Virus record (IMG/VR): IMGVR_UViG_3300026194_000281
DNA length: 29,069 bases
Reading direction: 5' to 3' (one strand)
Source of the DNA: a virus
The notes below the pieces were generated by a model. That model was given only the letters and a program-made list of their open reading frames with translations, made no database searches and was not told where the DNA came from. This document shows positions 101 through 19,372 of this stretch, piece after piece (position 1 is the first letter of the stretch; each line of letters opens with the position of its first letter). Position numbers and translations under genes: made by a program.

Positions 101-119
101 TATCACTCCTCCCCCGACG
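101..119 (+). repeat. 19-bp direct repeat TATCACTCCTCCCCCGACG, copy 1
   Basis: Identical to 22403-22421; the preceding GAC-x also matches (gacAtatc vs gacCtatc). Confidence 0.9.
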
Positions 120-301
120 CGATGTATTGTAACCGGTGCGCCGCACCACTCACCGAGGAGGCGAGAGGTCAACAGAAGCAGAAGGCCTCCCGCATCCTCG
201 ACCACATGGACCAGGATCCCCGGCTGGCCATCATCGACCAGAAGCTCGAAGAGTTCCGCCAGTCCCTCATCGCCGAGATGGACCCGTCGGGCAGAACCTG
301 A
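110..301 (+). pseudogene. C-terminal remnant of a tyrosine integrase (half Zn-ribbon plus tail)
   Basis: SPDAMYCNRCAAPLTEEAR...HMDQDPRLAIIDQKLEEFRQSLIAEMDPSGRT* aligns with the C-terminus of 22826-24073 (FCRMCTRPLTTEAR...HMDQDPRLAIIEQKFEEFRQSLIDKMDSSGRT*). The in-frame upstream sequence is not integrase-like. Confidence 0.8.
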
Positions 302-310
302 TCACCATCT

Positions 311-320
311 CTCCTTTTTA
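311..320 (+). terminator. Oligo-T putative archaeal terminator after int
   Basis: CTCCTTTTTA just after the stop codon; conserved at 24080-24089 in the second copy. Confidence 0.45.
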
Positions 321-430
321 AAAGGCCCACCACGCGTGCGTTTTGCGGCGCCCACGTTTGCTCTCGACAACGTTCCTTCCATAAAAGAGGGGGTATCCCC
401 CTCCCACATATATATAGATCGGGAGGCATC

Positions 431-438
431 TATATAAA
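431..438 (+). promoter_or_regulatory. TATA box for the ORF134-ATPase operon
   Basis: TATATAAA starts 30 nt upstream of ATG 461; the second copy has TATATATT (24198-24205) at the same spacing from ATG 24228. Confidence 0.65.
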
Positions 439-460
439 TCACTAGAGACGATATTCATAC

Positions 461-865
461 ATGGGAGAAATACCCGGCGACGTAAAAACCGCCCTTGGGC
501 GCCTCTATGTACTCTGCTCCGTCACCACCGACCCCGCCACCCTGCTCCGGCTCACCCGGGCCCTGATGAGCAGCGTCCGTGCCTGCCAGGCGAAGTTACA
601 CGAATCCATAGACGAAGGCACAAGAAACATTCCCGAATGGGAAACCTACCGCAACAAGATCGACACGGCGACCGTAGCATACGCCTCATCAGCAGACGCC
701 TGGGCAACCGTCATGATCACCTGTGCCGACATAGCCGATTACTTCTACGCACTCTGTTTGCTCGACGACCTGATCGAGATCGAGGCGAGCGACTTCGACC
801 TGACAACCTACTTCACCCCGAGAAATACCCCCCCGGAGGCAGGAGATGGCAGCAGAAGCCCCTGA
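461..865 (+). CDS. Hypothetical alpha-helical protein, coupled to the ATPase (allele A)
   Basis: Preceded by a TATA box; overlaps the ATPase start; homologous to 24228-24650 (84/115 residues identical by manual count). Confidence 0.8.
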   Translation: MGEIPGDVKTALGRLYVLCSVTTDPATLLRLTRALMSSVRACQAKLHESIDEGTRNIPEWETYRNKIDTATVAYASSADAWATVMITCADIADYFYALCLLDDLIEIEASDFDLTTYFTPRNTPPEAGDGSRSP

Positions 866-1919
866 AATCTCCGAAGTAACGAAGCGGACAGTCCCAATAT
901 CCGGAGCCCTAGCCGCCGTATCCCCCGAGATCGGTCGGAGCCTCTTCTACGAGGTAACCTGCCATGACGACGGCGTTGCCGCGATGGGCGGGATCTCAGC
1001 CGCCCTGGTGGCTCTCCCCGGCGGCGGGAAAAGCACCCTCCTGATGCAGCTTGCCCAGCTCGTGAACCACGTCAACGGGCACGCCGCAAAACTCGATGTA
1101 ATCAACCTCAAAAACCAGCACGTACCTGAAACCGTCATCTGGCGCGGACTTGAATACGATCACTGGGCCTGCTTCATCCAGGAATACTGGATGAGATCCT
1201 TCCCAAAACACGCGAATCCAAAACCCATACGGCTCCACATGCACCACCGAGATCGCCTCACCTTCTACCTAGATTTTGAGAAAAAGCCGTATCAACTCAT
1301 GCTCTCAGGAGACGACATTAAGTTTTACAACGGCCCCGACGAGTTATATGCCAACCTCCTCCCGGGCGGGATCAATGTCGTCTATGAACCCCAGGAGTAT
1401 TATCTAACGTCAAAAACCCTCCAACGGATTATGGCATCCCGCCTCAAGGCAACGAAATACGAGGATCAGGAGGACATCCGAGCCCCCTCGTTCATGTGGT
1501 GGTACGAATTCATTGAGACCCTCTCCCGCATCAAAAAACGCGGCGAATACTATACTCTGATCATCGACGAGGCCGCCCGTCTCTTTCCATTCGGGGCGCA
1601 GGGAGACCACTGGCACATGATCGGCTGGCTCGTCGAGACCCTCATCCATCTGCGAAAAAAGAACATCTCGACGTTCTTTGCCATCCACGGCCTTGACCTG
1701 ATAGATCCCCGGGTGGCAAAACGGATACAGTATTTCATCTGGCTCCCCGGCTCCCTCCCGGGAACTCGCAACAACATGGTTACTGCCTCCCTCGTCGGCC
1801 GGCTCCCGCTTGGCTGGGGCATCATCGAACAACCTCGGCGCCGGTTCGGTCGGTTCCGGTTCGGCCGCATCCCCCGGCAGCCCCCGGTCGTGCAGGCAGT
1901 CGGCCTCTCAGGAATATAG
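846..1919 (+). CDS. P-loop ATPase, FtsK/HerA/Zot-like, putative genome packaging or morphogenesis ATPase (allele A)
   Basis: Walker A ALPGGGKST, Walker B LIIDEA, then LRKKNISTFFAIH and DPRVAKRIQYFIWL; lies directly upstream of the capsid-like gene. Confidence 0.8.
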   Translation: MAAEAPEISEVTKRTVPISGALAAVSPEIGRSLFYEVTCHDDGVAAMGGISAALVALPGGGKSTLLMQLAQLVNHVNGHAAKLDVINLKNQHVPETVIWRGLEYDHWACFIQEYWMRSFPKHANPKPIRLHMHHRDRLTFYLDFEKKPYQLMLSGDDIKFYNGPDELYANLLPGGINVVYEPQEYYLTSKTLQRIMASRLKATKYEDQEDIRAPSFMWWYEFIETLSRIKKRGEYYTLIIDEAARLFPFGAQGDHWHMIGWLVETLIHLRKKNISTFFAIHGLDLIDPRVAKRIQYFIWLPGSLPGTRNNMVTASLVGRLPLGWGIIEQPRRRFGRFRFGRIPRQPPVVQAVGLSGI

Positions 1920-1950
1920 ACTTCCTCAAAACTATATAGAAAACAACTAC

Positions 1951-1979
1951 TTTTATATACCACTATAGCCCTATATATT
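1951..1979 (+). promoter_or_regulatory. AT-rich promoter of the capsid-like operon
   Basis: TTTTATATA (1951-1959) and TATATATT (1972-1979) in an AT-rich gap within GC-rich DNA, upstream of ATG 1994; conserved in copy 2. Confidence 0.6.
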
Positions 1980-1993
1980 TTTGGAGAAAACCT

Positions 1994-2344
1994 ATGGGAA
2001 AACACCTCGATTTTGCACGTGAGTGCTGGATCACCCTCCACACCGCCGGCGTGGGGGCCGTAAAGCGCCTCTATCAGGCCCGGTGCCTCAACGAGGATGC
2101 CAACGTCAACGCGGTTCTCGGCTTCATCATCGTCGCCGCCGTGCTCTTCATCGGTATCCCGGTGCTCGCCGCGATCTCCGCCGCGACCCCGGCGCTCAAT
2201 GAAACCGACCCCCTCTACGCCACGCAGCAGGCGCTGCAGACCACCACGAGTTCTGGCTACGGGCTGCTCGTCGTCACCCTGATCATCATCGCCATGGGTG
2301 CCGTCATCGGCGGCCTGATGATGTTCAACGCCCGGCGCGGATGA
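1994..2344 (+). CDS. Putative major capsid protein, spindle-virus VP1-like hydrophobic hairpin with N-terminal propeptide
   Basis: ~35-aa leader, then EDANVNAVLGFIIVAAVLFIGIPVL (helix 1), a loop with an N-E-T sequon, and a second hydrophobic helix. The spacing of N...LG...PV matches my recollection of mature SSV1 VP1. Confidence 0.65.
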   Translation: MGKHLDFARECWITLHTAGVGAVKRLYQARCLNEDANVNAVLGFIIVAAVLFIGIPVLAAISAATPALNETDPLYATQQALQTTTSSGYGLLVVTLIIIAMGAVIGGLMMFNARRG

Positions 2345-2381
2345 GGAGACCGGAGGAAACATCCCGTTTTCCGATCTTCTC

Positions 2382-2873
2382 ATGACGTCGAACCTCCGGG
2401 GGCGGGCCCTCCCCGCCCTCGTTCTATCCTCCCTCCTGTTCCCCGCGGCCTCTGCCGCCAACGTCACCGTCGCTGATCCTGTGCAGGTCCTCCCGGCAGC
2501 CCAAACCTACCTCCCCGTCGAGATCTGGACGCTCCTCTTCGCCCTCACCTGGGTCTGTCTCGGGCTCTCCCTCTGGCCCGGCATCGAGGGCCGGGACATG
2601 TGGGCCGGTCTCGCCGCCCTCCTCGCCGCAGCCGTCGCGTGGCTCTCTGGCTACATCAGTTTCAACAGCATCCATCCGATCCTCCTCACCGACGGCGACA
2701 TCCTCATCCAGCCCGTGCAGTGCCTCATCCAGCCGCCCTACCTGGGCCTGCTCATGATCGGCGTCTTCCTCCTCGCCGTAGTCAACGCCTTCCGGGTCGT
2801 CTGGCTCATCTACATCCGCCCGATCCGCGACCTCCGGCTCGCCGATCAGGGATACGACATAGGAGACCGATAA
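2382..2873 (+). CDS. Membrane protein with signal peptide and ~3 TM segments
   Basis: Signal-like LVLSSLLFPAASA, N-V-T sequon, three hydrophobic stretches; in operon context. Confidence 0.75.
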   Translation: MTSNLRGRALPALVLSSLLFPAASAANVTVADPVQVLPAAQTYLPVEIWTLLFALTWVCLGLSLWPGIEGRDMWAGLAALLAAAVAWLSGYISFNSIHPILLTDGDILIQPVQCLIQPPYLGLLMIGVFLLAVVNAFRVVWLIYIRPIRDLRLADQGYDIGDR

Positions 2874-2875
2874 CA

Positions 2876-3352
2876 ATGCCACAAATAATGAGTGCCGACG
2901 AATTCGCCGAGCGCCGCGCCAACGAGAGCGACCTCAACCGCCCGCTCCCACTGATGGGGAAACCTCTCGGAGAGCGGCAGATGGAAACCTTGCTGAAGCC
3001 CGACCTCCCGGCGAAGAAAGGCCCCCTCGAAAAACTCTGGATCTTCTCTGGCGAAGCCACCCGGCACGTGCAGCTCACCAACATCCCGACCGAGGACGAT
3101 AAACGCCGGTTTGACCGCAACGTCAACGATATGCTTCGGGTCGCCACCTGGGACGCCGACGACTACCTCGACCTCATGCAGGCAAAGTTCCTCGTCACCA
3201 AGGTCCTCGCGGCGAAGAGCATCGGCTATACTCGGATGCCCCGGGAGCGGGACGCCCTCAACGAGAACCGCATTACCCAGACCATCCGCGACGACCGCCC
3301 GCCCATCCCGAAGGACTCCGGCGGCCTGTTCGGCTTCCTCAGGAGGGGCTAA
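2876..3352 (+). CDS. Hypothetical soluble protein (158 aa)
   Basis: ATG 2876 lies 2 nt after the previous stop, with GGAG upstream; the part from MPQIMSADEF on has normal protein composition, while the in-frame upstream extension is low-complexity. Confidence 0.75.
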   Translation: MPQIMSADEFAERRANESDLNRPLPLMGKPLGERQMETLLKPDLPAKKGPLEKLWIFSGEATRHVQLTNIPTEDDKRRFDRNVNDMLRVATWDADDYLDLMQAKFLVTKVLAAKSIGYTRMPRERDALNENRITQTIRDDRPPIPKDSGGLFGFLRRG

Positions 3353-3354
3353 CC

Positions 3355-4056
3355 ATGTCAGAAGTAATCGTAGCTGCAACGGAAATGCCGGGATATATCC
3401 TCGGCCTCCCCTGGTTCATCTGGGCGTTTGTCGCCCTCGGGGTCATCATCCTGATCTCCAACGCCCTCTGGGTCTGGTACTGGTGGACCATGGGGCCGGT
3501 CGGCGCCTACTGGAAAGCGGTGCGCAAGAACGAGACCCTCGGCATCCTGCTCACGAAGGGCGGCAAGCTCCGCTTCGTCGCCACCGAATACGTCGCCGGC
3601 GTCATGCGGTCGCTTGACCTCAAGATGTCCTGGATGATCCGCAGCCCTGACGCCTGGCAGCTCGGCACCGTCCCCTCGAAGCTCCTCATCGACCTCTGGG
3701 GCATCGGCGCGGACCCCCGGCTCCTCGTCGCCGTAAAGACCGCGATCGGGACCTGGAACGAAGAGCACCCCGATAACCAGATCGAGACCTACAAAGACCT
3801 CTACGACAAGGTCAAGCGCAAAGAGATCGCCGACCCGATCCTCATCCCGGCCGTCGCCGAAGTCCCCATCTACGAAATAGAGCGGTACCTCCCACATGTC
3901 GGCGCCGGCGACTTTGAAGGACATATCGCCGTCCGGGTCGCGGAAGAAGTGGACGACTTGAAGGGCAAAGAATGGCCGGCCTGGATGAAGGCGTTTATCA
4001 TGATCGAGATGGCCGTCATCGCATTCGGCGGGATCATCTATCTCCTGGGGAGCTGA
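3355..4056 (+). CDS. Membrane protein with N- and C-terminal TM helices
   Basis: GGAGG upstream, translationally coupled; hydrophobic segments at both ends. Confidence 0.8.
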   Translation: MSEVIVAATEMPGYILGLPWFIWAFVALGVIILISNALWVWYWWTMGPVGAYWKAVRKNETLGILLTKGGKLRFVATEYVAGVMRSLDLKMSWMIRSPDAWQLGTVPSKLLIDLWGIGADPRLLVAVKTAIGTWNEEHPDNQIETYKDLYDKVKRKEIADPILIPAVAEVPIYEIERYLPHVGAGDFEGHIAVRVAEEVDDLKGKEWPAWMKAFIMIEMAVIAFGGIIYLLGS

Positions 4057-4058
4057 CC

Positions 4059-6461
4059 ATGAATTTCGGCAGCGCTCCATCCCGGGTCCAACAGCTCAGG
4101 GAGGCCATGGCCGCCCGCCCGCCGGCCCCGCAACAGCAGGCCCGCGCCGGCCTCCTCCCGCAACAGCAGCCGGCCCCGACCGCCCCGGCCGCCCCGGCTG
4201 CATCCGCTCCCTCCTCATCCCCACTCGCAAATCTGGAGCGCAAGGTGCTCGCAGGGAGAGATCCGCGCCGGATCGGCACCCCGCTCGACTCCCCTGTAGC
4301 CCGAGTCATCGGCGGCCTGATGAGAGACGGGGTCGTCACCCCGTGGGACACCGAGACCAAATACAACGAGCACGCTGCCGCCTTCACCGAATACCAGCAA
4401 ATCCAGCAGAAACACGCCCCCCACATCCAGGGCGGCGTCTTCGTCGTCAACACCCCCCAGGACCAGGCCAAATACCAGGAGCTGCAGCGGGCGGCCACCC
4501 GCGTCGAGACCACCGGCCAGGCGTTCGAGCAGACCCGAGACCGGGAACTCTTCGGCATCTCCCGGCGCGTCGCCGACCTCAACAAAGGCGCCGCCGACTT
4601 CCTCAACCTCCCGGCCGTCACACCACGAGCAGAAACGGTGCATCGGGAGCGGGTAGCGCCCCACATCGGCCCCATGTTATCTCTGATGAACAAGGGCGGC
4701 CCCATTCCCGCGCTCGCTCGCGCCGCCGTCCCCGGTTACCGCCGGGCGGAATCCGATTTCTTCGCAGGCATCGGCGCCGGCGGCTATGAGCGGTTCCGGG
4801 TCGAACCTCTCACGGCGGCAGGATCCGTGGCGGTCGGGTTCCTCGGCGGCGCCGCAATGAAGGGCGCAACCCTCCTCCCGAAGGTCGGTCCCGTCGTCGT
4901 CGCAAAAGGCCCCACCATCGCAAAAGGCGTCGAAGCCCTCTACGTGGGCTCTGTCGGCGTCAGGACCGCCGGCGCTGGCCCCGACTACTTCGAGATGGGC
5001 CGAGAGTTCGGCGGCATCCTGACCACCGAGGCGATCCCGATGTATGGAGGGGTGAAGGCGTTTACCACCCTATCCCCGAGGGTCGGGGCAGGTGTTGCCC
5101 GGGCAAAGGACGCCTACCTCTCCCACAAGATCCGGGACGCCCCCGCCGCCCAAGTGAAAGCAGGCGGTCACTATCCCGACAACGAGATGATCCTTGAAGG
5201 TCTCCGGATGCAGGAGAGCCGGAGCCCCTTTGTCTCTGCCCGCTCCCTCTCCCGCAGCCGCCCCGGGAAGGCCGGCACCTTTGTCGAGGTCGGCCCCGGT
5301 CGCTACGTCGAGAAAGGCGGTCTTGACACCTACCTCCGGAGATTTGAGGTCGAGGCTGCCCACTGGCGCCGCCCCATCCCTCCCGAGTTCGTCGCCCGAG
5401 AAGACATCCTCGATGCTCCAGCCCACTGGCGCACCCCCGAGTTCGGCGGCCAGGTCGGGAGACAGGACCCCGTCCACGGCTGGCCCGAGCGAAGGATCGC
5501 CGGCGGTCACTATCCCGACAACGAGATGATCCTTGAAGGTCTCCGGATGCAGGAGAGCCGGAGCCCCTTTGTCTCTGCCCGCTCCCTCTCCCGCAGCCGC
5601 CCCGGGAAGGCCGGCACCTTTGTCGAGGTCGGCCCCGGTCGCTACGTCGAGAAAGGCGGTCTTGACACCTACCTCCGGAGATTTGAGGTCGAGGCTGCCC
5701 ACTGGCGCCGCCCCATCCCTCCCGAGTTCGTCGCCCGAGAAGACATCCTCGATGCTCCAGCCCACTGGCGCACCCCGGAGTTCGGCGGCCCCCCGGCCCC
5801 TATAACGGTAACGAAGATGTATGCCGGCATCCCGATCCGCATCAGCCGTCAGGGGCTCAGGGTCGGCAGATCTACCTATTCCCGCTCCGGACAACCCCTC
5901 AGGATCCGCCCGCCCCGTGCCGACCTGACCATGGCCGACGCCACGAAGACCCGGTTCCTCCTCCCGCTCGCATCAGGGACCGGGGAGACCCTCGCATCCG
6001 GCGAGACCATCCTCTCCCGCCTCGAACCCACGATCGCATCCCGGGCACAGAGCGCCACGCTCACCGCCTCCGGCCTACGCGACATCCTCGCCACCCGGCA
6101 GGACATCGACACATCAGAACTCACCAAATCTTCACTGACCCTGGACTCCTCTCTCATCCCTGCATCAGCCCTCCGCTCCGCCCAGGCCCAAGACTCCCTC
6201 CTGCTCACCACCTCCCGCCTCACCTCCCGGCAGCGGCAGCGTTCCGACACCATCCCCCGGCCCCGGCTCCGGGAAACCACCGTCGGCCTCCCGCGCCTGC
6301 GGCCGAAACTGGCCCCGCTCCCCAAGATCCCCCGAACCCCGATGGTCTTCGGGCTCCCGGAGCGGACCCCGCCGAAAAAGAAGCGCAAGAAAAAAGGCAA
6401 AAAGAAGGAGTTTGATGAGTTCCTGACCCTCCCCGACCTCTCCCGCCTCTGGAGGTTCTAA
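4059..6461 (+). CDS. Large Ala/Arg/Pro-rich putative internal virion or scaffold protein with a 96-aa internal duplication and a basic C-terminus
   Basis: ATG 4059 follows the upstream stop (TGACCATG); 800 codons open; ends PKKKRKKKGKKKEFDEFLTLPDL. Confidence 0.7.
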   Translation: MNFGSAPSRVQQLREAMAARPPAPQQQARAGLLPQQQPAPTAPAAPAASAPSSSPLANLERKVLAGRDPRRIGTPLDSPVARVIGGLMRDGVVTPWDTETKYNEHAAAFTEYQQIQQKHAPHIQGGVFVVNTPQDQAKYQELQRAATRVETTGQAFEQTRDRELFGISRRVADLNKGAADFLNLPAVTPRAETVHRERVAPHIGPMLSLMNKGGPIPALARAAVPGYRRAESDFFAGIGAGGYERFRVEPLTAAGSVAVGFLGGAAMKGATLLPKVGPVVVAKGPTIAKGVEALYVGSVGVRTAGAGPDYFEMGREFGGILTTEAIPMYGGVKAFTTLSPRVGAGVARAKDAYLSHKIRDAPAAQVKAGGHYPDNEMILEGLRMQESRSPFVSARSLSRSRPGKAGTFVEVGPGRYVEKGGLDTYLRRFEVEAAHWRRPIPPEFVAREDILDAPAHWRTPEFGGQVGRQDPVHGWPERRIAGGHYPDNEMILEGLRMQESRSPFVSARSLSRSRPGKAGTFVEVGPGRYVEKGGLDTYLRRFEVEAAHWRRPIPPEFVAREDILDAPAHWRTPEFGGPPAPITVTKMYAGIPIRISRQGLRVGRSTYSRSGQPLRIRPPRADLTMADATKTRFLLPLASGTGETLASGETILSRLEPTIASRAQSATLTASGLRDILATRQDIDTSELTKSSLTLDSSLIPASALRSAQAQDSLLLTTSRLTSRQRQRSDTIPRPRLRETTVGLPRLRPKLAPLPKIPRTPMVFGLPERTPPKKKRKKKGKKKEFDEFLTLPDLSRLWRF
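5163..5790 (+). repeat. 289-bp in-frame tandem duplication (5163-5451 and 5502-5790; period 339 bp)
   Basis: The copies differ by one synonymous base that I could find (ccc/ccg); 50-bp spacer. Confidence 0.95.
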
Positions 6462-7250: not shown

Positions 7251-7708
7251 CCGAATATCACACGGCGGAACGAACCGCGACCACACCCCTGCACGTCTCA
7301 ACCACCCCGCACCTCGCCTACCTCCTGGTGCTGCTCGCCCTCCTCGCCGCCGACATCGCAACAACCGTCTGGTTCACCGGGCTCGGCCTGCCGGATCTCA
7401 ACCCCCACATCGCCCCCATCGCTGGCTCGGTCGCGGCGCAGGTCGCGTATAAAGCCCCGTTCGCGCTGTTGCTGGTCGGCAGCACCGCCCTCCTCGCGAC
7501 CGCCTGCGACCGGCTCCGGTCCGGCGCCGGGAAATACCCGTGGCTCGCCGTGGCCGGCATCTACGCGGTCCCGGTCGCCTGGAATCTCGTCGTGATCGCG
7601 GGGCACACGGGCTTCCACGTCGTCCCTGCGGTCGTCTACGCCCCGGTTGCTGTCGTCTGCGCCGTAGGGGTCTGGCGTGCCGCCCACCCTCGCCCGGAGG
7701 CACTAACT
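7247..7708 (+). CDS. DUF5658-like membrane protein (no in-frame stop; reads through into the adhesin)
   Basis: GTG start in a GTGA overlap; motif AADIATT...GLGLPDLNP...YK; paralogue at 14225-14527. The end coordinate is nominal. Confidence 0.55.
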
Positions 7709-7795
7709 ATGCCCGCGAACCACCCTAACCCCCGGCCGGCGGGGCCTCCCTCGACCTCCCCGCCCATAGCCTCTCCCCGCCCAGGAGGCGCTAAC

Positions 7796-10429
7796 ATGCC
7801 CGGCCCCCGTCGCCCCGCCCCCCTGCGCCCCCTGACGCTGCTAGCCATCTTACTCCTTATGACATGCGTAGTAGGCCCGGCGGCATCGGCAGAAATACTT
7901 ATAGATACGGAATATAGTGATTATTTTGCGAAAGTTGCAACCGTGACTGGTTCAGGCTCACCAGTATATACCGCTCCTGCTAACGGCATTATAATGAGTA
8001 CGCCGTTATCCTCTCCAGAATTTAATTCTATGTTTGCACAGATACCGGTGGCGGGGTTGGTAACAAACTATGACAGTTTACCGACTACCGGGCAAGCAAA
8101 TGTAAAATGGCATAAAAGTAGTCAGAGTGGCACTACCGGGGCGTTTTACATGTCTGGTACGTATGGGTATTTTAAATATACTGCTGGAGGGGCTAATTAT
8201 CTACAGATATGGGCGGAATTCGACGACCCTGTTAGTAAATTAACTGGTCCGACATATCTAAAATGCGTTTTAGATTCGGGCGAGTCTATTGTATGGCCAA
8301 AAATTAGGATGGTCGAAGGACCGTATAATTACGGCCCTCAACCTCTTTACGACGGTCTGGTTACTGATACATCTGGAATAAAGGCTACATTTGCAACTTC
8401 GCGCCTTGATGGTGGTAATTATTTGTTTTGTCTTGGCGGGGCTGGTGTTACGGTTCATCCCGTTTTATCAGGGACGTGGAAAAACGGGTTACGAATAGAG
8501 ACCCTCTCCGGTAATGTCCCCCGGGTGCAAATCGATATTACCAAAAATTACGACGGATATTTAGGGACCTCTGACCACTATGTGATGTTTGGGGAAACCG
8601 TATATAGCGCTATTGGTGGAACGTCGGACGCACAATACATCATTCCAGAGTCCGAATACCCAATTTCGGTCAGTATATATAACGCCCAAAATGATAAATG
8701 GTATAACTCGACGTACGGAGAGGCAGCCCCCGGAGAAGACGCCCCCGTCACCGTCTACGTCCAAAACAGTCAGACCGGCGCCCTCCTTGCCGACGCCAAC
8801 CTCAGCATCCTCGCGGCCGCCGGCGGCACCGAAACCGAGATCGTCAACGCCACCCTCCCCGGCGGCACCGGCACCTACAGCCTGGAGAAAGCGGACTACC
8901 TCAAATACCACGCATCCGCCACCGCCGACGGCTACACCCTCCTCTCCCCGATCCTCTTCGGCGTCCCGGAGAACGGTACAACGATCGTCCTCTGGATGGC
9001 TCCCGACGCCCCGCCCGACGTCCCCACCGAGCCCGAAAAATCCATGCTCTACGGCTACGTCCAGACCCAGGGCAGCCAGCAGCCGATCGCCGCCGCGACC
9101 GTCTCCCTCGACGGCTACGGCAGCACAACCACGTCGTCGACCGGCTTCTACCTCTTCAACAACATCACGCCCGGCGGCCCCTACACCCTCTCCGCCTCCG
9201 CCCCGCTCCACGATGCCCTCAGCGAACCCGTCACCGTAGATAGTGCCCCGACCCCCCATAACCTCGCCCTCAAAGGCCACTTCATGCTGACCGTCACCAT
9301 CAAGGACGGCGACGACCTCACAAACCTCCACAACTCGACGATCTCCCTCAGCGACGGGCAGGAGAGCACCCAGAACCCCGCGACGTTCACCGCCGACTAC
9401 GGCCCCTACACCATCACCGCAACCGCCGGCGGCTACTACCCGCAGACCCAATCCGCATACCTCGACAAGCCCGGCACCACCACCGCAACGGTCCTCCTAA
9501 CCGCCAAACCTGAACCTGTCCCCCCGCCGGAAATGCCCAACTACCCGCCGCACAACGTCAGGTTCCTCTGCATCGACGAATATAACCGCCCTCTCCAGAA
9601 CGTCACCCTCCGCGCCGTCTACCAGGAAAGCACCAACCCGGTCGACTGGTTTACCAGCTGGCTCGGCCTCTCCCCAAGCGTCAACATCAACAGCACGACT
9701 CTCGAAGGCACCACCGGTCTCGATGGCAGCGTAATCTTCCTCATGGTCGAATCCGTCCAGTACCGCATGACCGTCACGGCGCCAGCTCCGCTCAACATGA
9801 CCAAGACCTTTGACCTCTACCCGAAAGAAGACGAGATCACGATCCGGTTCGTCACCTCCGCCCGCCCCGACCTCTCCACGATGCCGACCTACGACCTCAC
9901 CGCGACCGAGACCGACCCCTCCAGCGTCCAGCTCGCCCTCAGCTACCACGACACCACCAACGCCACCACCTCCCTCACATTCAACGTCTACGATCACGCC
10001 ACCGGGGACGTCATCAACACCCAGACCTTCGACGCCTCCAGCTTCCCCGGCACCGTCTCCCCGACCTACGACGTCACCAACACCAACGGCGCCATGTATC
10101 GCTTCGGGTTCACCGCCCAGAACTCCGCCCACGGCGAGATATCGCAGTATAAAGGCATCACCCTCAAAGGAGACAACCTCCTCGTAGACCTCGGCTTCGA
10201 GGACCGCACCCTCTACCAGTGGCTTGCCGTGCTCCTCCTCTTCCTCTTCGCCGGCGCCTTCAGCGGCACCAACGTCAAGCAGGGCGCGATCCTCGTCCCG
10301 CTCTTCGGCGGCGGCCTCTTCTGGTTCATCGGCTGGCTCCCGATCACCCTCGGCGCCACCATCTCCGCGATCGGGTTCCTCGGCGTCCTCGTCTACATGC
10401 GCAAGAGCGAATGGAAGGTGAGAGCATGA
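7796..10429 (+). CDS. Large secreted, membrane-anchored adhesin or tail-like glycoprotein: variable N-domain, carboxypeptidase-regulatory-like beta-sandwich repeats, C-terminal TM helices
   Basis: GGAGG then ATG 7796; signal peptide LTLLAILLLMTCVVGPAASA; repeats such as LYGYVQ...PIAAATVSLDG...TTTSSTGFYLFNNITPGGPYTLSASAP; many NxT/S sequons; three hydrophobic C-terminal segments. Confidence 0.8.
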   Translation: MPGPRRPAPLRPLTLLAILLLMTCVVGPAASAEILIDTEYSDYFAKVATVTGSGSPVYTAPANGIIMSTPLSSPEFNSMFAQIPVAGLVTNYDSLPTTGQANVKWHKSSQSGTTGAFYMSGTYGYFKYTAGGANYLQIWAEFDDPVSKLTGPTYLKCVLDSGESIVWPKIRMVEGPYNYGPQPLYDGLVTDTSGIKATFATSRLDGGNYLFCLGGAGVTVHPVLSGTWKNGLRIETLSGNVPRVQIDITKNYDGYLGTSDHYVMFGETVYSAIGGTSDAQYIIPESEYPISVSIYNAQNDKWYNSTYGEAAPGEDAPVTVYVQNSQTGALLADANLSILAAAGGTETEIVNATLPGGTGTYSLEKADYLKYHASATADGYTLLSPILFGVPENGTTIVLWMAPDAPPDVPTEPEKSMLYGYVQTQGSQQPIAAATVSLDGYGSTTTSSTGFYLFNNITPGGPYTLSASAPLHDALSEPVTVDSAPTPHNLALKGHFMLTVTIKDGDDLTNLHNSTISLSDGQESTQNPATFTADYGPYTITATAGGYYPQTQSAYLDKPGTTTATVLLTAKPEPVPPPEMPNYPPHNVRFLCIDEYNRPLQNVTLRAVYQESTNPVDWFTSWLGLSPSVNINSTTLEGTTGLDGSVIFLMVESVQYRMTVTAPAPLNMTKTFDLYPKEDEITIRFVTSARPDLSTMPTYDLTATETDPSSVQLALSYHDTTNATTSLTFNVYDHATGDVINTQTFDASSFPGTVSPTYDVTNTNGAMYRFGFTAQNSAHGEISQYKGITLKGDNLLVDLGFEDRTLYQWLAVLLLFLFAGAFSGTNVKQGAILVPLFGGGLFWFIGWLPITLGATISAIGFLGVLVYMRKSEWKVRA

Positions 10430-10812
10430 GCAGATTCTACGACATCTGGTATCTGCTGACGTTCGCCGGGCTCGCCATCGGGTTCGTGAACGGTCTCGGC
10501 GTCTGGGGCCTCGACTACATGACCGCCCCGGAGAGCAGCACATTCGAACTCTCCGACATCGAAAGCATCGCCGGGGGCGGCGACGTCTCGGCCTGGGACC
10601 AGTTCACGCTCCTGGTCTCGCAGGCCGTCACTGCCTTCGGCATGATCGCCCAGATGGCCCTCTCGGTCGTCCTGGTCTACCCAACGATGGTCAACGTCTT
10701 CCACATGCCGCCGATCGTCGCGACCCTCGTGCAGGGCGGCGTGGTGCTCTCATGGGCCTCGTTCTTCATGCAGATCTTACTCCGGTTCGGCTTCAAGCAG
10801 GTGGAATCATGA
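10426..10812 (+). CDS. Membrane protein (~3 TM), virion or tail module
   Basis: ATGA overlaps at both ends; hydrophobic segments. Confidence 0.75.
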   Translation: MSRFYDIWYLLTFAGLAIGFVNGLGVWGLDYMTAPESSTFELSDIESIAGGGDVSAWDQFTLLVSQAVTAFGMIAQMALSVVLVYPTMVNVFHMPPIVATLVQGGVVLSWASFFMQILLRFGFKQVES

Positions 10813-12527
10813 GGCGCCCGGCCTTCGCCCTCCTCCTCAGCTGCCTCCTGCTCGTCGCCGGGGCCTCAGCGCTCGACGGGTGGGAGTATTACCAGGAGAT
10901 CGAGTATGCCGGGTGCGATCAGGACGCCTACCAACAGGACATCGTGATCCATCGCAGCACCGGCACCGCCTACAATGAAACGAGCGACGGGCTGGAGACC
11001 TGGCACATCTACGTCGGGGAGCATTGCCAAGAGGATTACGGGGACCTCCGGTTCTCTGACCGCTACGGCCGGGAGCTCGCCTACTACCTCTGGCCGGACT
11101 TCGACGCCACGAGCGCCCGGGTGTGCGTGCGGCTGGAGGGGGCGACGAGTTCCGGGACGCTGACGGTCTGGTATGGGAACCCGTCCGCGACGACGACGAG
11201 CGACCCGGACGCGACCTATGACCTCTGGTGTGACTTCCTCGACGCTGGAGAGGTGGCTGCGGTTTTCGATGTTGTAGGGACTCCGAGCACTACATATGCC
11301 GACTCCGTGGCGACGATCACCTGCGATGCCCGCGAGTTCTATCAATCGAAGAAGACGTTCTCGCGGCCGGCCCGGGTCGAGTTCAGGATGGCCGATACTG
11401 GGTATGGGACTGATCGGTACCCCAGTTCTACTGGGTTCGGGATCCGCAACCAGGGCGGCGGGGGCTATCACGTTATACGTGAGGCTGAGACGGCCGCGAG
11501 GTACGCTCTGGTCACATGCAATGGGGGGACAACCTCTGTTGGCGCGGGATCATCTCACGACCTCGCATTCCAGGATTATCAGATCGACTGGGTTAGTGGA
11601 ACAAGCGCATCTCTGCGGAAAAACGGGGTCGTTGTCTCGACAGTCTCATCAAATATCCCCGCGGGCACCCTCCCTGTGACCTTTGGGCGGTTCCACTATG
11701 TGTATTCCGGCAATCAGATGCGGATAGACTGGATCCTCGTTCGCGCCTACAGCGCCACCCCGCCCGCCACCTCCACCTTCAGCGGCGAACGGGAAACCGC
11801 CGCCCCGCCAGTCACACAGTTCACCGCCTCCCCAACCCTCGGCCCCCGGCCCCTCACCGTCCAGTTCACCGACACATCCACCAACACCCCAACCTCCTGG
11901 CTCTGGGACTTCGGGGACGGCAACACCTCCACCGACCAGAACCCGCAGCACACCTACACCGCCCCCGGCCTCTACACCGTCACCCTGAACGCGACCAACG
12001 AATACGGCAGCGACGACGAGATCAAAACCGACTACATCACCGTCTACGGTCCAGTCTCCGCCCAATTCACCGCCACCCCCACCGGCGGCACCGCCCCGCT
12101 CATCGTCCAGTTCACCGACCTCTCCACCGGCGGCCCGACCTCATGGCTCTGGACCTTCGGGGACGGCAACACCTCCACCGCCCAGAACCCGCAGCACACC
12201 TACACCACAGCCGGCACCCACACCGTCACCCTCACCGCCTCGCACCCCTACAGCAGCGACACCGAGACCAAAACCAGCTACATCACCATCGCCGTCCTGC
12301 AACCCTTCCCCGGCATCACCGCCCTCCCCCGCGACCTCGCCGGCACCGGCCTCTACACCGACATCAACGGCAACAACCGCCTTGACTACAACGACCTCAC
12401 CGTCTTCTTCCAAAACCTCGCATGGGCCAAAACCAACCAGCCCCTTGACGCCTTCGACTTCAACCGCAACGGCCGCCTCGACTTCGACGACGTCATCATC
12501 CTCTACCAGGTGATTATAAATGCGTAA
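10809..12527 (+). CDS. Secreted DUF2341-like / lectin-like domain + 2x PKD + C-terminal dockerin-like (double EF-hand) protein
   Basis: Signal peptide; DUF2341-like GDLRFSD..ELAYY..VWYGNP; two PKD repeats (VQFTDTS...WLWDFGDG..ST.QNP.HTY); dockerin-like DINGNNRLDYND...DFNRNGRLDFDD; no C-terminal TM anchor. Confidence 0.85.
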   Translation: MRRPAFALLLSCLLLVAGASALDGWEYYQEIEYAGCDQDAYQQDIVIHRSTGTAYNETSDGLETWHIYVGEHCQEDYGDLRFSDRYGRELAYYLWPDFDATSARVCVRLEGATSSGTLTVWYGNPSATTTSDPDATYDLWCDFLDAGEVAAVFDVVGTPSTTYADSVATITCDAREFYQSKKTFSRPARVEFRMADTGYGTDRYPSSTGFGIRNQGGGGYHVIREAETAARYALVTCNGGTTSVGAGSSHDLAFQDYQIDWVSGTSASLRKNGVVVSTVSSNIPAGTLPVTFGRFHYVYSGNQMRIDWILVRAYSATPPATSTFSGERETAAPPVTQFTASPTLGPRPLTVQFTDTSTNTPTSWLWDFGDGNTSTDQNPQHTYTAPGLYTVTLNATNEYGSDDEIKTDYITVYGPVSAQFTATPTGGTAPLIVQFTDLSTGGPTSWLWTFGDGNTSTAQNPQHTYTTAGTHTVTLTASHPYSSDTETKTSYITIAVLQPFPGITALPRDLAGTGLYTDINGNNRLDYNDLTVFFQNLAWAKTNQPLDAFDFNRNGRLDFDDVIILYQVIINA

Positions 12528-13593
12528 CACCCTCCTCACCCTGCTCCTCGCCGCCCTCCTCATCACCACGGCGAGCGCCGCGACCGTCACGGTCAGCGAC
12601 GTAACCATCCAGCGGGACAGCACCGCCACCGCCACCATCACCCTCACCGGTGCAGACTCCGGGCTCTCCGGCTACTCCCTCACCGCCTCCGTCAGCGGCA
12701 CCGCCGCCCGGATCACAAAGGTAGACTTCCCCGCCTGGGCCGCCATCCACAGCGCCGGCGACCTCCCCGCCTCCTCCGTCACCCTCGACGCCGTAGACCT
12801 CAACAACGCCGTCACCGGCCCCTCCGCCACCCTCGCCACCCTCACCCTCTCCGGCATCAACCCCGGCACCGGCACCATCTCCGTCACCATCTCCTCCATG
12901 GACGACGACACCGGCCAGCCCATCACCCCCGCAACCGAGAGCGGCTCCTACTCCGTCACTATCGCCCCCGGCGGCACCGACTATCCCCTCTGCGACGGCC
13001 TCACACTCAGCATCTCTAGCATCACCTCAAAATCAGCCACGTTCACCGGCTCAACCCCCGACCCCGACGTCTGGATCGTTCTCGGCACCGCCCCCGGAAA
13101 GTACGGGTATCGCACCGCAAACATCACAGTCAGCGGCGGCACCTACTCAGGGACCCTCGAATCTTACCCGCTCATCGCCGGACAGACCTACTATGCCCGA
13201 GCCGCCACCCCGCATGGCTATAGCGCCGAAACGACATGGACCATGGCCGCCGCCGGCGCCGCCCCCACGACCACCTACGGCACCCGGGCCGACGCCTTCC
13301 AGGCATCCAACATGTCGCTCCTCACCCTGTGGGACTACACCCTTGAGACCGGCGGCGAGACCTTCGGCGGCGGCGACACCGGCACCATCATCTTCATCTC
13401 CCTGATCGGCGCCGTGGCGTTCATTGTCCTCTTCGGCCGTGCGGGCGACGTCATCATCCCGCTGGAGATCGGCGTCCTGACGATCGGCATCATCCTCCCG
13501 CTCCTCGCGCCGGAGTTCGCCGAGATCGGGTATGGCCTGATGGTCGCCGCCGTGCTCGGCGTGGTGTACAGCATTTTCAGAAAAGTTGTGTAG
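12520..13593 (+). CDS. Secreted cohesin-like domain + FN3-like domain + C-terminal TM anchor
   Basis: Signal peptide; GLSGYSLT...ITKVDFPAWA...DAVDLNNAV...LATLTL...MDDDTG resembles Methanomicrobiales cohesin-like domains; FN3-like GQTYYARA; three C-terminal hydrophobic segments. Confidence 0.7.
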   Translation: MRNTLLTLLLAALLITTASAATVTVSDVTIQRDSTATATITLTGADSGLSGYSLTASVSGTAARITKVDFPAWAAIHSAGDLPASSVTLDAVDLNNAVTGPSATLATLTLSGINPGTGTISVTISSMDDDTGQPITPATESGSYSVTIAPGGTDYPLCDGLTLSISSITSKSATFTGSTPDPDVWIVLGTAPGKYGYRTANITVSGGTYSGTLESYPLIAGQTYYARAATPHGYSAETTWTMAAAGAAPTTTYGTRADAFQASNMSLLTLWDYTLETGGETFGGGDTGTIIFISLIGAVAFIVLFGRAGDVIIPLEIGVLTIGIILPLLAPEFAEIGYGLMVAAVLGVVYSIFRKVV

Positions 13594-13697
13594 AGTATAG
13601 AGAACTATGTGTAGAAGTGGAGAACTATATAGGTCAAAAGACCGATATAGAGAACGACGGAGAAACCAGCAGAAACGGAAACGAAAACAGAAGGAGT

Positions 13698-14228
13698 ATG
13701 GTAGATATGGGAATGTTTGACCGGTTAAAAGGACTCAAGGCGGGTTACGACGCGAGAGCAAGCAAGACGCTCGGCGAACGCGAAGCCAGAAAAGAGCAGG
13801 ACGCCGCCCTCAGATCCGCAGAAGCGCACATGATCAAAGACTACAACCTCAAGCGCACCGGCACGCCCGGCCGCTACCTGGTCGGCAACGACAAGGTAAT
13901 CGACGTCAACATCCGCAGCTTCGACAGCATAAACGCGGCAAGAAGCGCCCTTGACAAACACTACGCGGCCCCCACGGTCAAGAAGCTCTCAAAGAGCGAA
14001 CTCTCTGAGATCAGCCAGGGATCCCTGCTCGGGCGCCTCAGCGACATGGGGCAGAACTTCAACGCAAACTTCGGGAACGTCGGCGGCGGCGCCGGCGGTG
14101 GCATAGGCAACTATGACTTCATGGGCGGCGGCTTCGGCGGAGGAATAGGCGACTACGATTTCATGGGCGGCGGCACCAGCAAGCCCCGGAAGAGGCGGAA
14201 GAGCAGCAGCAAGAGGAAGAAGCGGTGA
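13698..14228 (+). CDS. Basic protein with Gly/aromatic repeats and a K/R tail, putative DNA-binding virion protein
   Basis: AGGAG near ATGs 13698/13707/13713 (start uncertain); GGGIG[N/D]YDFMGGG twice; ends KPRKRRKSSSKRKKR. Confidence 0.7.
   Translation: MVDMGMFDRLKGLKAGYDARASKTLGEREARKEQDAALRSAEAHMIKDYNLKRTGTPGRYLVGNDKVIDVNIRSFDSINAARSALDKHYAAPTVKKLSKSELSEISQGSLLGRLSDMGQNFNANFGNVGGGAGGGIGNYDFMGGGFGGGIGDYDFMGGGTSKPRKRRKSSSKRKKR
14094..14174 (+). repeat. Imperfect 39-bp coding repeat, period 42 bp
   Basis: 14094-14132 and 14136-14174 encode GGGIGNYDFMGGG and GGGIGDYDFMGGG. Confidence 0.85.
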
Positions 14229-17515: not shown

Positions 17516-19372
17516 ATGGCGTCTCTCAACCTACAGGTATCCCCATCCAGCGGCGGCTATCCCCTAGCGCCAGCTCGAGCCAACCCCTTCCTCTTCTCCG
17601 TAGGGGCGGAGCGCATCGACCTCTATCCGATCCTCCGCGACGGTGCAAATATGCATAGCATCAGAGCCCGTTTAGCGCCCAAAACAGGCGACAATCTCCG
17701 GGGCTACCCGGCGATCTATCACCGCCTCCTCCGGTTCCTGAAACGCCTGGAAAAGGACGGATATCTCGTATCTGAGAAGGGCGTGCTCGCTCTCGGCATG
17801 GACGAAAAACCATGTTACTGGTGGCGGCCTACCCATGCGGGCCTATACTTGATAGGGCAGGTGCAAAATTCAAACCCGTGCAAATTACCCCGGGACCCTG
17901 ACACCCTCGAGGGTGACACCTTGCAACGTCAAGCGGCCCGGGGAGCCTTCCGGACCCGCTACCCCTACGACACCGACGAGCCCGAACCGGAGATCCCCCG
18001 GTGGGTCCGGTTCCCGAAGCGCTCCAGCCTCACCCGATTAAAGGCCGCGTCCCTCCTCTGCCAGGTTCGGAATGACTTCCTGCCCAGCTACAAGCAACGC
18101 CTCTTCGAGCGCCTCGACACGGGCCGGGTAGATCCGAAGACCGGCAAACCGATCACGGTAGTAAACCCTCTTCTGAAGGCCAAACTCGCGGACATCCGCG
18201 AGTATTACGACTACTACCTCGAAGAGATCGCAGACAAGACGATTGTCCTCGTCAACAAGGACGCCGAGACCCCGGGCGGCGAGGACTTCAAGACGCTGCC
18301 CTACCGGACCCGCTTCAACGACTTCAGCCGGTCCGCCCGAGCGCTCGACAAGTATGAAGCTGCCTGGGTCGAGGCTGAAAAGTTCTTCTCCAACGCCGTT
18401 TTCCTCACCCTGACGACCGATCCGAAAAAGCACCCCTCCCTCTGGCGGGCAAACCGGCACATGAGCGTTGCCTGGAACCGTTACACTGCCCTGCTCACCA
18501 AGCGAGCCCGGGACGGATTTATCGACGACCTCCGGACCACCCGCGAAAAAATCTTGAAAACACAGGGATACTCAGACGAGGAGATCGCAACCCTCACCCA
18601 TTCCGACGAGTTCCGGGAGTACATCGAACAAGAACTCCAGGGCCGCTCATTCCGGCCTAAATACGTTGCCGTGAACGAGTTTATGGAGAACGGCCTGCTC
18701 CACATGCACATCATCGTTTTCGGCACCTCCTGGATCGCAAAGCGCGAACAGATCTCCGAGGACTGGGACCGATGCGGGCAGGGCAAGATCGTCAAGGCGC
18801 TCGCCGTGCATCGAAACCCGAAAACAGGCATCTGGGAGTGGGCCGGCAGCCGGCCCGACGACGCCAAATCCGGCGAATCGCCCCGAGACTACCTGAAAAA
18901 ATACCTGAACAAAGCGATCTACGACCGCAAAGGGTTCGAGTTGTACTGGGCGCTCAACAAAAATTTTATGAGCACCTCTCGCCGGTTCGACCCTGCCCGG
19001 ATGACCATAGAGGAGGAGGTAGACCGCTGGTATCAGAGAATCAAAGAAAAACTCCTCAAAGAGCAGAATCCGTCATACTGGCGCTATGCGTTTTGTTCTC
19101 CTGCTGGAGAGATCCCGACCTGGATGGACTGGTATGACCGGAAAAACCGGCGCACCATCGGCCCGGCCGTACTGGTCGAGAACCTGACCGGCACTGCCAG
19201 CGCCCCGCCGCTCCTGACGGCGAACGAACGCCGCATCGAGCATCTCCGGCGCAAGGGGCTGCTCACGTTTAGAACCGCCCTTGAGCTACGGCGCTCGACA
19301 ATTGCCGAGCGCCAAGAGCCCGAGAAAAACCCCGAAACCGGCCGGCCATGGAGCCTGGCCGACTTTATGTGA
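17516..19372 (+). CDS. rep: Rolling-circle replication initiator, HUH endonuclease with two catalytic Tyr (archaeal plasmid/pleolipovirus-type Rep)
   Basis: Motif I FLTLTT, motif II LHMHIIVFG, motif III YLKKYLNK; N-terminal wHTH-like segment; no SF3 helicase motifs seen. Confidence 0.88.
   Translation: MASLNLQVSPSSGGYPLAPARANPFLFSVGAERIDLYPILRDGANMHSIRARLAPKTGDNLRGYPAIYHRLLRFLKRLEKDGYLVSEKGVLALGMDEKPCYWWRPTHAGLYLIGQVQNSNPCKLPRDPDTLEGDTLQRQAARGAFRTRYPYDTDEPEPEIPRWVRFPKRSSLTRLKAASLLCQVRNDFLPSYKQRLFERLDTGRVDPKTGKPITVVNPLLKAKLADIREYYDYYLEEIADKTIVLVNKDAETPGGEDFKTLPYRTRFNDFSRSARALDKYEAAWVEAEKFFSNAVFLTLTTDPKKHPSLWRANRHMSVAWNRYTALLTKRARDGFIDDLRTTREKILKTQGYSDEEIATLTHSDEFREYIEQELQGRSFRPKYVAVNEFMENGLLHMHIIVFGTSWIAKREQISEDWDRCGQGKIVKALAVHRNPKTGIWEWAGSRPDDAKSGESPRDYLKKYLNKAIYDRKGFELYWALNKNFMSTSRRFDPARMTIEEEVDRWYQRIKEKLLKEQNPSYWRYAFCSPAGEIPTWMDWYDRKNRRTIGPAVLVENLTGTASAPPLLTANERRIEHLRRKGLLTFRTALELRRSTIAERQEPEKNPETGRPWSLADFM

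Follow-up and report, generated by a model that had tools for sequence, protein, structure and literature searches.

Two adjacent genes of a virus-like element from the methanogenic archaeon Methanoculleus, referred to as A and B, probably encode a surface adhesin built from two polypeptides, in which a dockerin-like tail of protein A is received by the cohesin of protein B. The genes are located in a 29,069-nucleotide stretch of DNA (IMG/VR record IMGVR_UViG_3300026194_000281), which was analysed as a whole and is called the window. The element is integrated or episomal and encodes an integrase and a rolling-circle Rep. In bacterial cellulosomes, cohesin and dockerin form the classic plug-and-socket pair of high affinity; to our knowledge, little is understood of what they do in archaea. 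A description of an adhesin pair of this kind was not found for any virus. The following features were assigned:

10426–10812, plus strand: conserved membrane protein of 128 aa, directly upstream of gene A.
10809–12527, plus strand: gene A, 572 aa, with signal peptide, DUF2341, two PKD domains and dockerin-like tail (open reading frame and Pfam; 56 homologues aligned).
10872–11798, plus strand: DUF2341 or lectin-like (ConA/LamG-like) region of A (Pfam PF10102, E = 1.2e-14).
11799–12293, plus strand: two PKD domains of A (Pfam, E = 7e-37).
12294–12524, plus strand: dockerin-like tail of A, 77 aa, two loop-helix repeats (Pfam below cut-off, loop conservation).
12520–13593, plus strand: gene B, 357 aa, with signal peptide, cohesin fold, FN3-like domain and helical anchor (open reading frame, AlphaFold2, structure search, hydrophobicity).
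12580–12969, plus strand: cohesin-fold module of B, residues 21–150 (VIA-align, Foldseek).
12970–13254, plus strand: FN3-like beta-sandwich spacer of B (model with pLDDT ~80–90).
13255–13590, plus strand: C-terminal helical membrane anchor of B (hydrophobic segments 284–357, predicted helices 267–356).

According to the proposed mechanism, protein A would be exported via its signal peptide, bearing the DUF2341 lectin-like region and the PKD domains as its presumed ligand-binding parts, and would end in a two-loop calcium-binding module of the dockerin type. Protein B, likewise exported and held in the membrane by its C-terminal helices, would present the cohesin on a stalk that resembles FN3. 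The dockerin of A would plug non-covalently, and probably in a calcium-dependent manner, into the cohesin of B. The adhesin would thereby be tethered to the membrane in which B resides; this may be the membrane or terminal structure of the virion, or else that of the cell during infection or lysogeny. Binding of the tail to the cohesin, its dependence on calcium, a location in the virion and a role in host attachment are what we infer from the features described below. A modular coupling of this kind would allow the outer part to be exchanged by recombination with the anchor left untouched.

The sole hydrophobic segment of protein A comprises residues 3–25, the signal peptide, and no C-terminal membrane anchor is present among its hydrophobic segments. 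The DUF2341 region is presumably the ligand-binding part; in some homologues it matches Laminin_G_3 or 3keto-disac_hyd. This region is mosaic among relatives, with identities of 41–77% compared to 76–86% for the PKD domains (where the whole region aligns). The PKD domains form an internal direct repeat of 246 nt with 80% identity.

The tail of A contains two loops of 12 residues each, DINGNNRLDYND (loop 1, residues 518–529, nt 12360–12395) and DFNRNGRLDFDD (loop 2, residues 550–561, nt 12456–12491). Both follow the pattern D-x-N-x-N-x-x-x-D-x-x-D, their starts are 32 residues apart and a helix is predicted after each. In the 56 homologues the ligands of loop 1 (D518, N520, N522, D526 and D529) are invariant, and loop 2 keeps its ligands (D550, N552, N554, D558 and D561) in at least 90%. 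Thus, the loops are no chance motif. Two tandem segments of ~22 residues, each with a 12-residue calcium loop that has Asp or Asn at positions 1, 3, 5, 9 and 12 and with a following helix, are the loop signature of dockerins. The tail also occupies the position of a dockerin, the extreme C-terminus of a signal-peptide protein that lacks an anchor and has a cohesin partner in the same system. One relative (L023) has kept the cohesin and has a tail with one calcium loop only.

The earlier note had called this tail a dockerin. The loop motif, the position and the context uphold that call, whereas the Pfam score is below the cut-off and no confident fold is obtained. Against Pfam Dockerin_1 (PF00404) the tail of the window reaches an E-value of 0.0026 and 18.3 bits, with a cut-off of 22.9. 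The match to EF-hand_7, which we take to belong to the same Pfam clan, is similar or better (E = 8e-4). Dockerin_1 matches 43 of the 56 tail homologues (E ≤ 0.1, best 2.7e-5). Aligned by hhalign with two proteins whose dockerins score above the Pfam cut-off, the tail profile covers the exact dockerin region of one (P0078) with an E-value of only 0.047 and gives nothing useful for the other (P0081). A search of the tail profile against PDB sequences yields a mixture of dockerins and EF-hand proteins with E-values of 0.001–1. The AlphaFold2 model of the tail is of low confidence and consists of a loop, a helix, a short helix, a loop and a helix. With this model Foldseek lists the dockerins 2vn5_D and 6kgc_B (target-normalised TM ~0.5) alongside EF-hands, all with E ≥ 0.5. 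The assignment of the tail as a dockerin-type module is supported by motif and context, though weakly so by sequence.

The same comparisons bear on a distinctly unlikely alternative, in which A would be stabilised by its tail, a generic extracellular calcium module of the EF-hand type, the cohesin fold of B would be a beta-sandwich spacer or bind something else, and both genes would be adjacent as members of one structural operon. Such a module would agree with the matches of EF-hand_7, which are found in 53 of the 56 homologues and are slightly better than those of Dockerin_1, with the EF-hand calcium-binding proteins that head the PDB sequence matches, and with a tail model (mean pLDDT 57.7) for which Foldseek finds no match at E ≤ 0.001. 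The loops themselves point to a dockerin instead. Position 12 is habitually Asp in dockerins and Glu in canonical EF-hands; it is Asp in both loops across the homologues (D529 invariant, D561 at least 90%). Furthermore, no entering helix is predicted in the 31 Pro/Gly-rich residues ahead of loop 1 in the low-confidence model. A canonical EF-hand pair, with a helix entering each loop and Glu at position 12, does not match the tail, given the Asp at position 12 and, in that model, the missing helix before loop 1.

Gene B overlaps gene A by 8 nt. The AlphaFold2 model of its product shows a beta-sandwich (residues 22–147, pLDDT ~90–95), a second beta-sandwich (residues 160–241) and C-terminal helices. 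A nine-stranded flattened beta-sandwich of the jelly-roll type with ~140 residues is characteristic of cohesins. Residues 19–149 of B, which cover the first domain, superpose on solved cohesins in VIA-align with a Z-score of 15.9 and an r.m.s. deviation of 2.1–2.4 Å over ~129 (125–133) of ~141 residues. Each of the 39 best-scoring PDB entries is a cohesin; types I, II and III are represented, as are archaeal cohesins such as 2xdh from A. fulgidus. The next unrelated fold has a Z-score of at most 9.9. Foldseek matches cohesins with E-values down to 5e-12, a probability of 1.00 and target-normalised TM-scores of 0.72–0.78. On the basis of this model, the socket in B is a cohesin fold.

Sequence comparison links the module to cohesins by way of another protein. 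A Pfam scan of B gives no direct match to cohesin (PF00963), and the profile of the B module finds no cohesin among PDB sequences. This profile (A5) and PF00963 (25.7 bits, cut-off 24.1) match one and the same domain of protein P0084, at residues 686–817 and 686–815, respectively. Over its whole ectodomain, B can be aligned with 2w1n, a double module of cohesin and FN3, and with proteins that have FN3 domains in tandem. The anchor is the most conserved part across all relatives of B.

Both architectures agree with what the earlier note had read from the sequence. For A, described there as a secreted DUF2341/PKD/PKD protein without an anchor and with a duplicated calcium loop at its end, the open reading frame, Pfam, hydrophobicity and both quoted loops concur. 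For B, described as the next gene with signal peptide, cohesin-like and FN3-like domains and a transmembrane anchor, the 8-nt overlap, AlphaFold2 and the structure searches do so, and the Foldseek search proposed there for the cohesin region finds cohesins.

Tail and cohesin were located by a six-frame profile scan of 28 loci and the window, which correspond to 22 distinct loci. Both are present in 13 of these and both are absent in the other nine, so that co-occurrence in relatives, proposed earlier as a check, holds as both or neither in 22 of 22. The Fisher test gives p = 5e-4 for loci that were found through B and with shared ancestry ignored. All 13 paired loci have one tail followed by one cohesin in constant order, and the spacing is 56–78 nt in 11 of them. 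In L010 the contig end truncates the tail, which is recognised only with tblastn. In L026, the cohesin follows 2.3 kb downstream of the tail, separated from it by three glycosyltransferase genes; the cohesin gene is directly downstream of the tail in the remaining 12 paired loci. Where the homologue of B lacks a cohesin, as in nine distinct loci, a gene for the tail is missing as well.

Tail and cohesin fall into three sequence types among the loci, one represented by the window, one by L006 and one by L022 and L024, the last of which has Trp in loop 2. Covariation of these types was set aside as evidence of specificity, since the two modules are ~60 nt apart and linkage alone suffices. With this separation, the two could be inherited and transferred together simply by being contiguous, as is also expected if the tail were a generic module of A. 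That alternative leaves unexplained that the gene for A and the cohesin appear and vanish together on different backbones. Compared to L002, the window is 87% identical in the cohesin and 74% in the tail, with 44% in the 128-aa upstream gene and 45% in the anchor. Compared to L001, which is without the pair, the upstream gene is 100% and the anchor 98% identical. The presence of the pair on such differing backbones indicates that the cassette was moved or lost more than once.

Other relatives carry different loads on the anchor. In L016 and P0014 a PKD domain is covalently fused to the same FN3-anchor, in L018 another domain is fused to it on a TPTQ linker, and relatives of B with 231 aa are the bare FN3-anchor with nothing attached. 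The 128-aa gene, whose stop codon shares the sequence ATGA with the start codon of gene A, lies ahead of the gene for the anchor in nearly every related locus, whether the pair is present or not. Fused, bare and split anchors among the relatives suggest, from sequence comparison, a Rosetta-stone picture for the pair. They also bear out, on the anchor side, the idea of a replaceable part, with the anchor as a swappable display platform.

The same modules are present in cellular archaeal proteins. The viral cohesin profile (A5) finds 1512 cluster representatives, among them multi-cohesin proteins from Methanofollis formosanus, from a Methanomicrobiaceae MAG and from Halomicrobium urmianum, and Methanomicrobiales encode numerous cellular proteins of the two module families. 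Among the best 149 proteins with this cohesin type, 51 have two to seven cohesin copies. The same tail is found on 52 of the 149, in 50 of them at the extreme C-terminus, and a C-terminal membrane anchor on 36; tail and anchor together are found on none (P = 1e-8). Judged by domain content, this exclusion is the pattern of scaffoldins that would be either anchored or plugged in. It is left unexplained if the tail merely stabilises its own protein.

The cellular distribution also raises the question of host partners. That the viral dockerin and/or cohesin bind surface partners of Methanoculleus instead of, or besides, each other is very unlikely. The abundance of both families in cellular archaeal proteins (the 1512 clusters), the matches of the viral tail profile to C-termini of cellular multi-cohesin proteins (E = 1e-15 to 1e-29) and the cell-surface cohesin-dockerin proteins discussed for ANME archaea (PMC9012536) would be in line with such cross-docking. 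However, the strict one-to-one adjacency of tail and cohesin fits a self-contained pair and not two independent host-directed ligands. Additionally, even the best cellular cohesins are distant from the viral one, with scores of ~85–115 bits per domain compared to 216 bits for the viral module itself. It is hardly probable, either, that a host-derived exchangeable coupling also interfaces with the cohesin-dockerin network on the host surface. The viral dockerin-tailed lectin would then plug into the viral anchor or into surface cohesins of Methanoculleus; alternatively, the cohesin of the virion would capture dockerin proteins of the host. If true, cohesin-dockerin recognition would be a part of virus-host attachment and of host range.

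The two-polypeptide adhesin, which is the preferred reading, resembles several known systems in part. Peer et al. are said to have surveyed non-cellulosomal cohesin-dockerin modules in 2009. Archaeal cohesins of this kind have the same fold as B (Archaeoglobus fulgidus 2xdh, Z-score 15.9), have no link to cellulose degradation and occur, together with PKD and further domains of the adhesion type, on proteins that are secreted or located at the surface. In contrast to these, the modules of the window lie on a mobile virus-like element in two adjacent, overlapping genes, with one anchored cohesin and one dockerin-like tail on a lectin/PKD protein. Unlike archaeal dockerins, the viral tail is a distinct type with the consensus ...LYTDINGNNRLDYNDL...FDFNGNG.LDY.DV..., and the copy in the window is below the Pfam cut-off.

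The cohesins of clostridial type I pairs (C. thermocellum 1ohz, C. cellulolyticum 2vn5, C. acetobutylicum 6kgc) superpose on the B module with an r.m.s. deviation of 2.1–2.4 Å, but their sequence identity to it is only 10–15%. Enzyme-borne clostridial dockerins are likewise duplicated loop-helix segments at the end of a secreted modular protein. In contrast to clostridial cellulosomes, the element has neither enzymes nor a multi-cohesin scaffoldin, its anchor consists of membrane helices and not of SLH or sortase attachment, and the pairing is predicted. GH84C of Clostridium perfringens (2w1n), in which a cohesin is followed by FN3, is the best match to the whole ectodomain (Foldseek E = 5.5e-12), and the NagH/NagJ toxin complexes of this species (2ozn) are a non-cellulosomal pair that assembles secreted proteins. 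These modules are bacterial, enzyme-borne and not membrane anchored, whereas B combines signal peptide, cohesin, FN3 and helical anchor.

In tailed phages with branched tailspikes, such as G7C and CBA120, adaptors mount exchangeable receptor-binding proteins. The principle is alike, with a conserved docking module, a variable receptor-binding part that can be swapped and a constant socket on the virion side. However, those adaptors are phage-specific domains on tails, and family scans of the element matched no terminase, portal, tail or capsid families. The spindle-shaped Pyrococcus abyssi virus 1 (PAV1) has a homologue of the 357-aa protein at 846–1916 of the window (24.5% identity, 88% coverage, E = 3e-12). 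PAV1 is reported to carry LamG-like adhesion proteins, which are comparable to the DUF2341 region of A. Its host belongs to a different archaeal order, and tblastn with B and the tail gives no match in PAV1 or elsewhere in 50,697 deposited phage and virus genomes. Neither A nor B had relatives in IMG/VR scans, a PHROGs search gave nothing for the two proteins, and a species-genome scan for relatives gave only one contig, which was already known. Only phage-display or engineering papers, and no natural viral use of cohesin-dockerin, were found in the literature. The earlier remark that no viral use of this pair is described therefore stands for the literature and the deposited virus genomes.

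If the pair binds, it would be a natural viral use of the coupling, by which an exchangeable adhesin is mounted on a constant membrane anchor. Mosaic evolution of the adhesin would be explained, for which relatives show all intermediates: the bare anchor, the fused domain and the split pair. Binding would also provide a testable handle on host recognition by methanogen viruses and on the role of archaeal cohesins and dockerins. The three tail/cohesin sequence types could become new orthogonal protein-coupling parts.

The genomic context bears on the membrane in which B resides. The genes for A and B lie in the same orientation, as one block, with a gene whose product weakly resembles virion structural proteins (116-aa ORF at 1994–2341; phrog_16261, E = 1.6e-4 only) and with those for large, membrane-anchored CarboxypepD_reg proteins. 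Such a layout is that of the structural modules of spindle-shaped and pleomorphic archaeal viruses. A small hydrophobic major capsid protein of the SSV1/His1 type without tailed-virus genes is a mark of spindle-shaped archaeal viruses. The shared block speaks against lysogenic conversion, in which the pair would be expressed from the provirus and decorate the host surface (aggregation, superinfection exclusion or receptor masking). We regard this as unlikely, even though the signal peptide of B is a classical one, its multi-helix anchor is of the cell-membrane type, and glycosyltransferases are inserted into the module of one relative (L026). In favor of it, a four-gene remnant holding just the A/B module persists among cellular genes in a Methanoculleus chromosome. 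Lysogenic conversion concerns the location only and is compatible with binding of A to B.

Genes A and B of the window overlap each other and are arranged as follows.

10809–12527: gene A, encoding a secreted lectin-like protein; it shares an ATGA overlap with the upstream gene of a conserved 128-aa membrane protein.
12520–13593: gene B, encoding a membrane-anchored protein; it overlaps gene A by 8 nt.

Judged from sequences and structural models, the product of A is rather likely to plug into that of B, and the gene neighbourhood alone points to a placement of both in the particle or on the surface of the lysogen. The signal peptide is the sole hydrophobic segment of A. Pfam assigns DUF2341 and two PKD domains, which are followed by a C-terminal tail of 77 residues containing both calcium loops quoted in the earlier note. 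The product of B has no match in Pfam or PHROGs. Its AlphaFold2 model (17 sequences) comprises a confident β-sandwich (residues 22–147), a second sandwich (160–241) and helices up to the C-terminus; the hydrophobic segments lie within residues 284–357. Directly downstream of B, a 203-aa protein (13617–14228) is encoded at a position conserved in relatives (e.g. 7692–8180 of the related locus L016). It contains a tandem 42-nt repeat (14082–14165) encoding GGGxGNYDFMGGG and has a Lys/Arg-rich C-terminus.

The cohesin-like β-sandwich and the FN3-like domain that had been read from the sequence of B are both borne out by the model. Foldseek matches in the PDB are nearly all cohesins, including the archaeal A. 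fulgidus cohesin 2xdh and many type I cohesins (target-normalised TM 0.72–0.78). The cohesin-FN3 double module of C. perfringens GH84C (2w1n) is matched with E 5.5e-12. Re-alignment of the B module with VIA-align gave a Z of 15.9 and an rmsd of 2.1–2.4 Å over ~129 of ~141 residues; cohesins fill the first 39 places, and the best-scoring unrelated fold has Z ≤9.9. A profile of seven viral cohesin modules found no cohesin among PDB sequences. In a library of 1.84 billion proteins it matched 1512 cluster representatives at E ≤1e-3. In protein P0084 its match (residues 686–817) is the domain that Pfam Cohesin matches above cut-off. The B module thus belongs to the cohesin superfamily as a divergent member, on firm grounds of fold and indirect ones of sequence.

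The tail of A contains the pattern D-x-N-x-N-x-x-x-D-x-x-D twice, with starts 32 residues apart and ligand positions that are (nearly) invariant across 56 homologues. Dockerin_1 scores 18.3 bits on this tail (Pfam cut-off 22.9) and EF-hand_7 slightly better; among the homologues they match 43 (best 2.7e-5) and 53 (best 4.7e-5), respectively. In PDB sequences, EF-hand proteins and dockerins are intermixed with weak E-values. The low-confidence model (pLDDT 57.7) consists of loop, helix, short helix, loop and helix, with no helix before loop 1. Asp at loop position 12 and a missing entering helix are the mark of a dockerin-type F-hand, which is therefore favoured over a canonical EF-hand. Of the dockerin named in the earlier note, the duplicated, conserved loop pattern stands, whereas the Pfam score is sub-threshold and a Foldseek search with the low-confidence model gave no significant match; the plug is dockerin-like, not a proven dockerin. 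In the related locus L023 (6509–6643) the tail has a single calcium loop, as though loop 1 were fused to the end of loop 2, beside a cohesin 90% identical to that of the window. This loss looks like a repeat-to-repeat deletion. The protein is present on five contigs, so an assembly error is unlikely.

The tail and cohesin profiles were run on the 150 best-ranked proteins with this cohesin type except P0005, a viral relative of B, which makes 149 in all. Two to seven cohesin copies are present in 51 of the 149, the same tail in 52 (at the extreme C-terminus in 50) and a C-terminal membrane anchor in 36; tail and anchor occur together in none (P = 1e-8). Source organisms include Methanofollis formosanus, Halomicrobium urmianum and a Methanomicrobiaceae MAG. 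Scaffoldins are either anchored or plugged in, and the cellular cohesin proteins resemble them in that tail and anchor are mutually exclusive. This exclusivity speaks for the tail as the dockerin that goes with this family of archaeal cohesins. P0078, P0079 and P0085, from the three sources named, carry 3–5 copies of the same cohesin type and P0111 carries 7; all four look like archaeal scaffoldins, and all except P0078 end in the viral tail type. The shared modules also imply that the element recruited parts that are widespread in the lineage of its host. As the same cohesin and tail families are common there, the viral modules may alternatively cross-bind host proteins.

Pairing of A with B itself is consistent with the distribution of the two modules in relatives, a survey proposed in the earlier note. 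Through homologues of A and B, 28 loci were fetched and scanned in six frames with the tail and cohesin profiles, and by tblastn. In 13 distinct loci (window included) a single tail precedes a single cohesin, with a gap of 56–78 nt in 11 of them. The L010 tail, cut by the contig end, was detected by tblastn alone. In L026 (4538–6782) the dockerin-tailed gene is separated from that of the cohesin by three inserted genes resembling glycosyltransferases or acetyltransferases (Glycos_transf_1, Hexapep, Glyco_transf_4). All 9 distinct loci with a cohesin-less B homologue are devoid of a tail gene. For loci ascertained through B the split is 5 versus 9 with zero exceptions (Fisher p = 5e-4, which overstates independence because relatives share ancestry).

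L001, where the pair is absent, has an upstream gene 100% and an anchor 98% identical to those of the window. In L002, where the pair is present, upstream gene and anchor are 44–45% and the pair 74–87% identical. Thus, the pattern of presence and absence reflects more than one event. Two anchor types bear the cohesin: one, of 357 aa, includes FN3 and the other, of 271–278 aa, lacks it. Covariation of tail and cohesin types is not counted as evidence, since adjacency in the DNA can by itself yield co-inheritance and co-variation.

Relatives of the B anchor carry different ectodomains:

231-aa forms: FN3 and anchor without an N-terminal module.
L016, 6575–7588 (337 aa): a covalently fused PKD domain.
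P0014 (555 aa): two PKD domains within a larger ectodomain.
L018, 6134–7618: an unrelated domain of ~230 residues on a (TPTQ)n linker.

The anchor is a display platform. PKD-bearing ectodomains are either fused to it or, where it has a cohesin, encoded separately with a tail, the pattern expected if a non-covalent pair replaces a peptide bond. In L022 (8711–12585), just four element genes (306 aa, 123 aa, an A homologue and a 278-aa cohesin-anchor) lie amid cellular genes of a 927-kb Methanoculleus contig (GCA_900198705.1). These genes are what is left of a provirus, or else an adhesin module that has become domesticated.

Cohesins and dockerins outside cellulosomes are already known from archaea, and binding has been shown for some of them (PMC9012536 and references there). 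The earlier note knew of no described viral use; likewise, none of natural origin was found in full-text searches of the literature, and tblastn of B and the tail against 50,697 deposited phage and virus genomes matched neither module. IMG/VR scans found no relatives of A and B.

The window contains two diverged head-to-tail copies of a ~23.8-kb element:

1–5300 and 23770–29069: repeated portions of the element copies, direct repeats at ~23,780 nt spacing.
846–1916, second copy 24610–25698: 357-aa protein (phrog_22963), homologue of a Pyrococcus abyssi virus 1 hypothetical protein.
1994–2341: small hydrophobic protein, weak match (E 1.6e-4) to a PHROG annotated as virion structural protein.
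17516–19372: rolling-circle Rep (family scans).
22826–24073: tyrosine integrase (family scans).

Over the repeat families reported, identity between the copies ranges from 71% (1469–1711) to 95% (1940–2239). The first copy opens with the end of an integrase-like ORF (180–304 matches 23952–24076 at 87%). The 846–1916 protein provides the only link found to any deposited virus (spindle-shaped Pyrococcus abyssi virus 1; 24.5% identity, 88% coverage, E 3e-12). Family scans matched no tailed-virus genes in the element. Relatives of gene A are assigned to Methanoculleus and Methanomicrobiales, and the TrpRS neighbouring the L022 locus is 87–91% identical to Methanoculleus proteins. In our reading, Methanoculleus is the host of this element, which is virus-like and temperate. 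An 829-aa ORF (3972–6461) contains a 339-nt tandem duplication with 99% identical copies (5160–5451 and 5499–5790), and the region 5160–5790 is matched by the second element copy at the end of the window.
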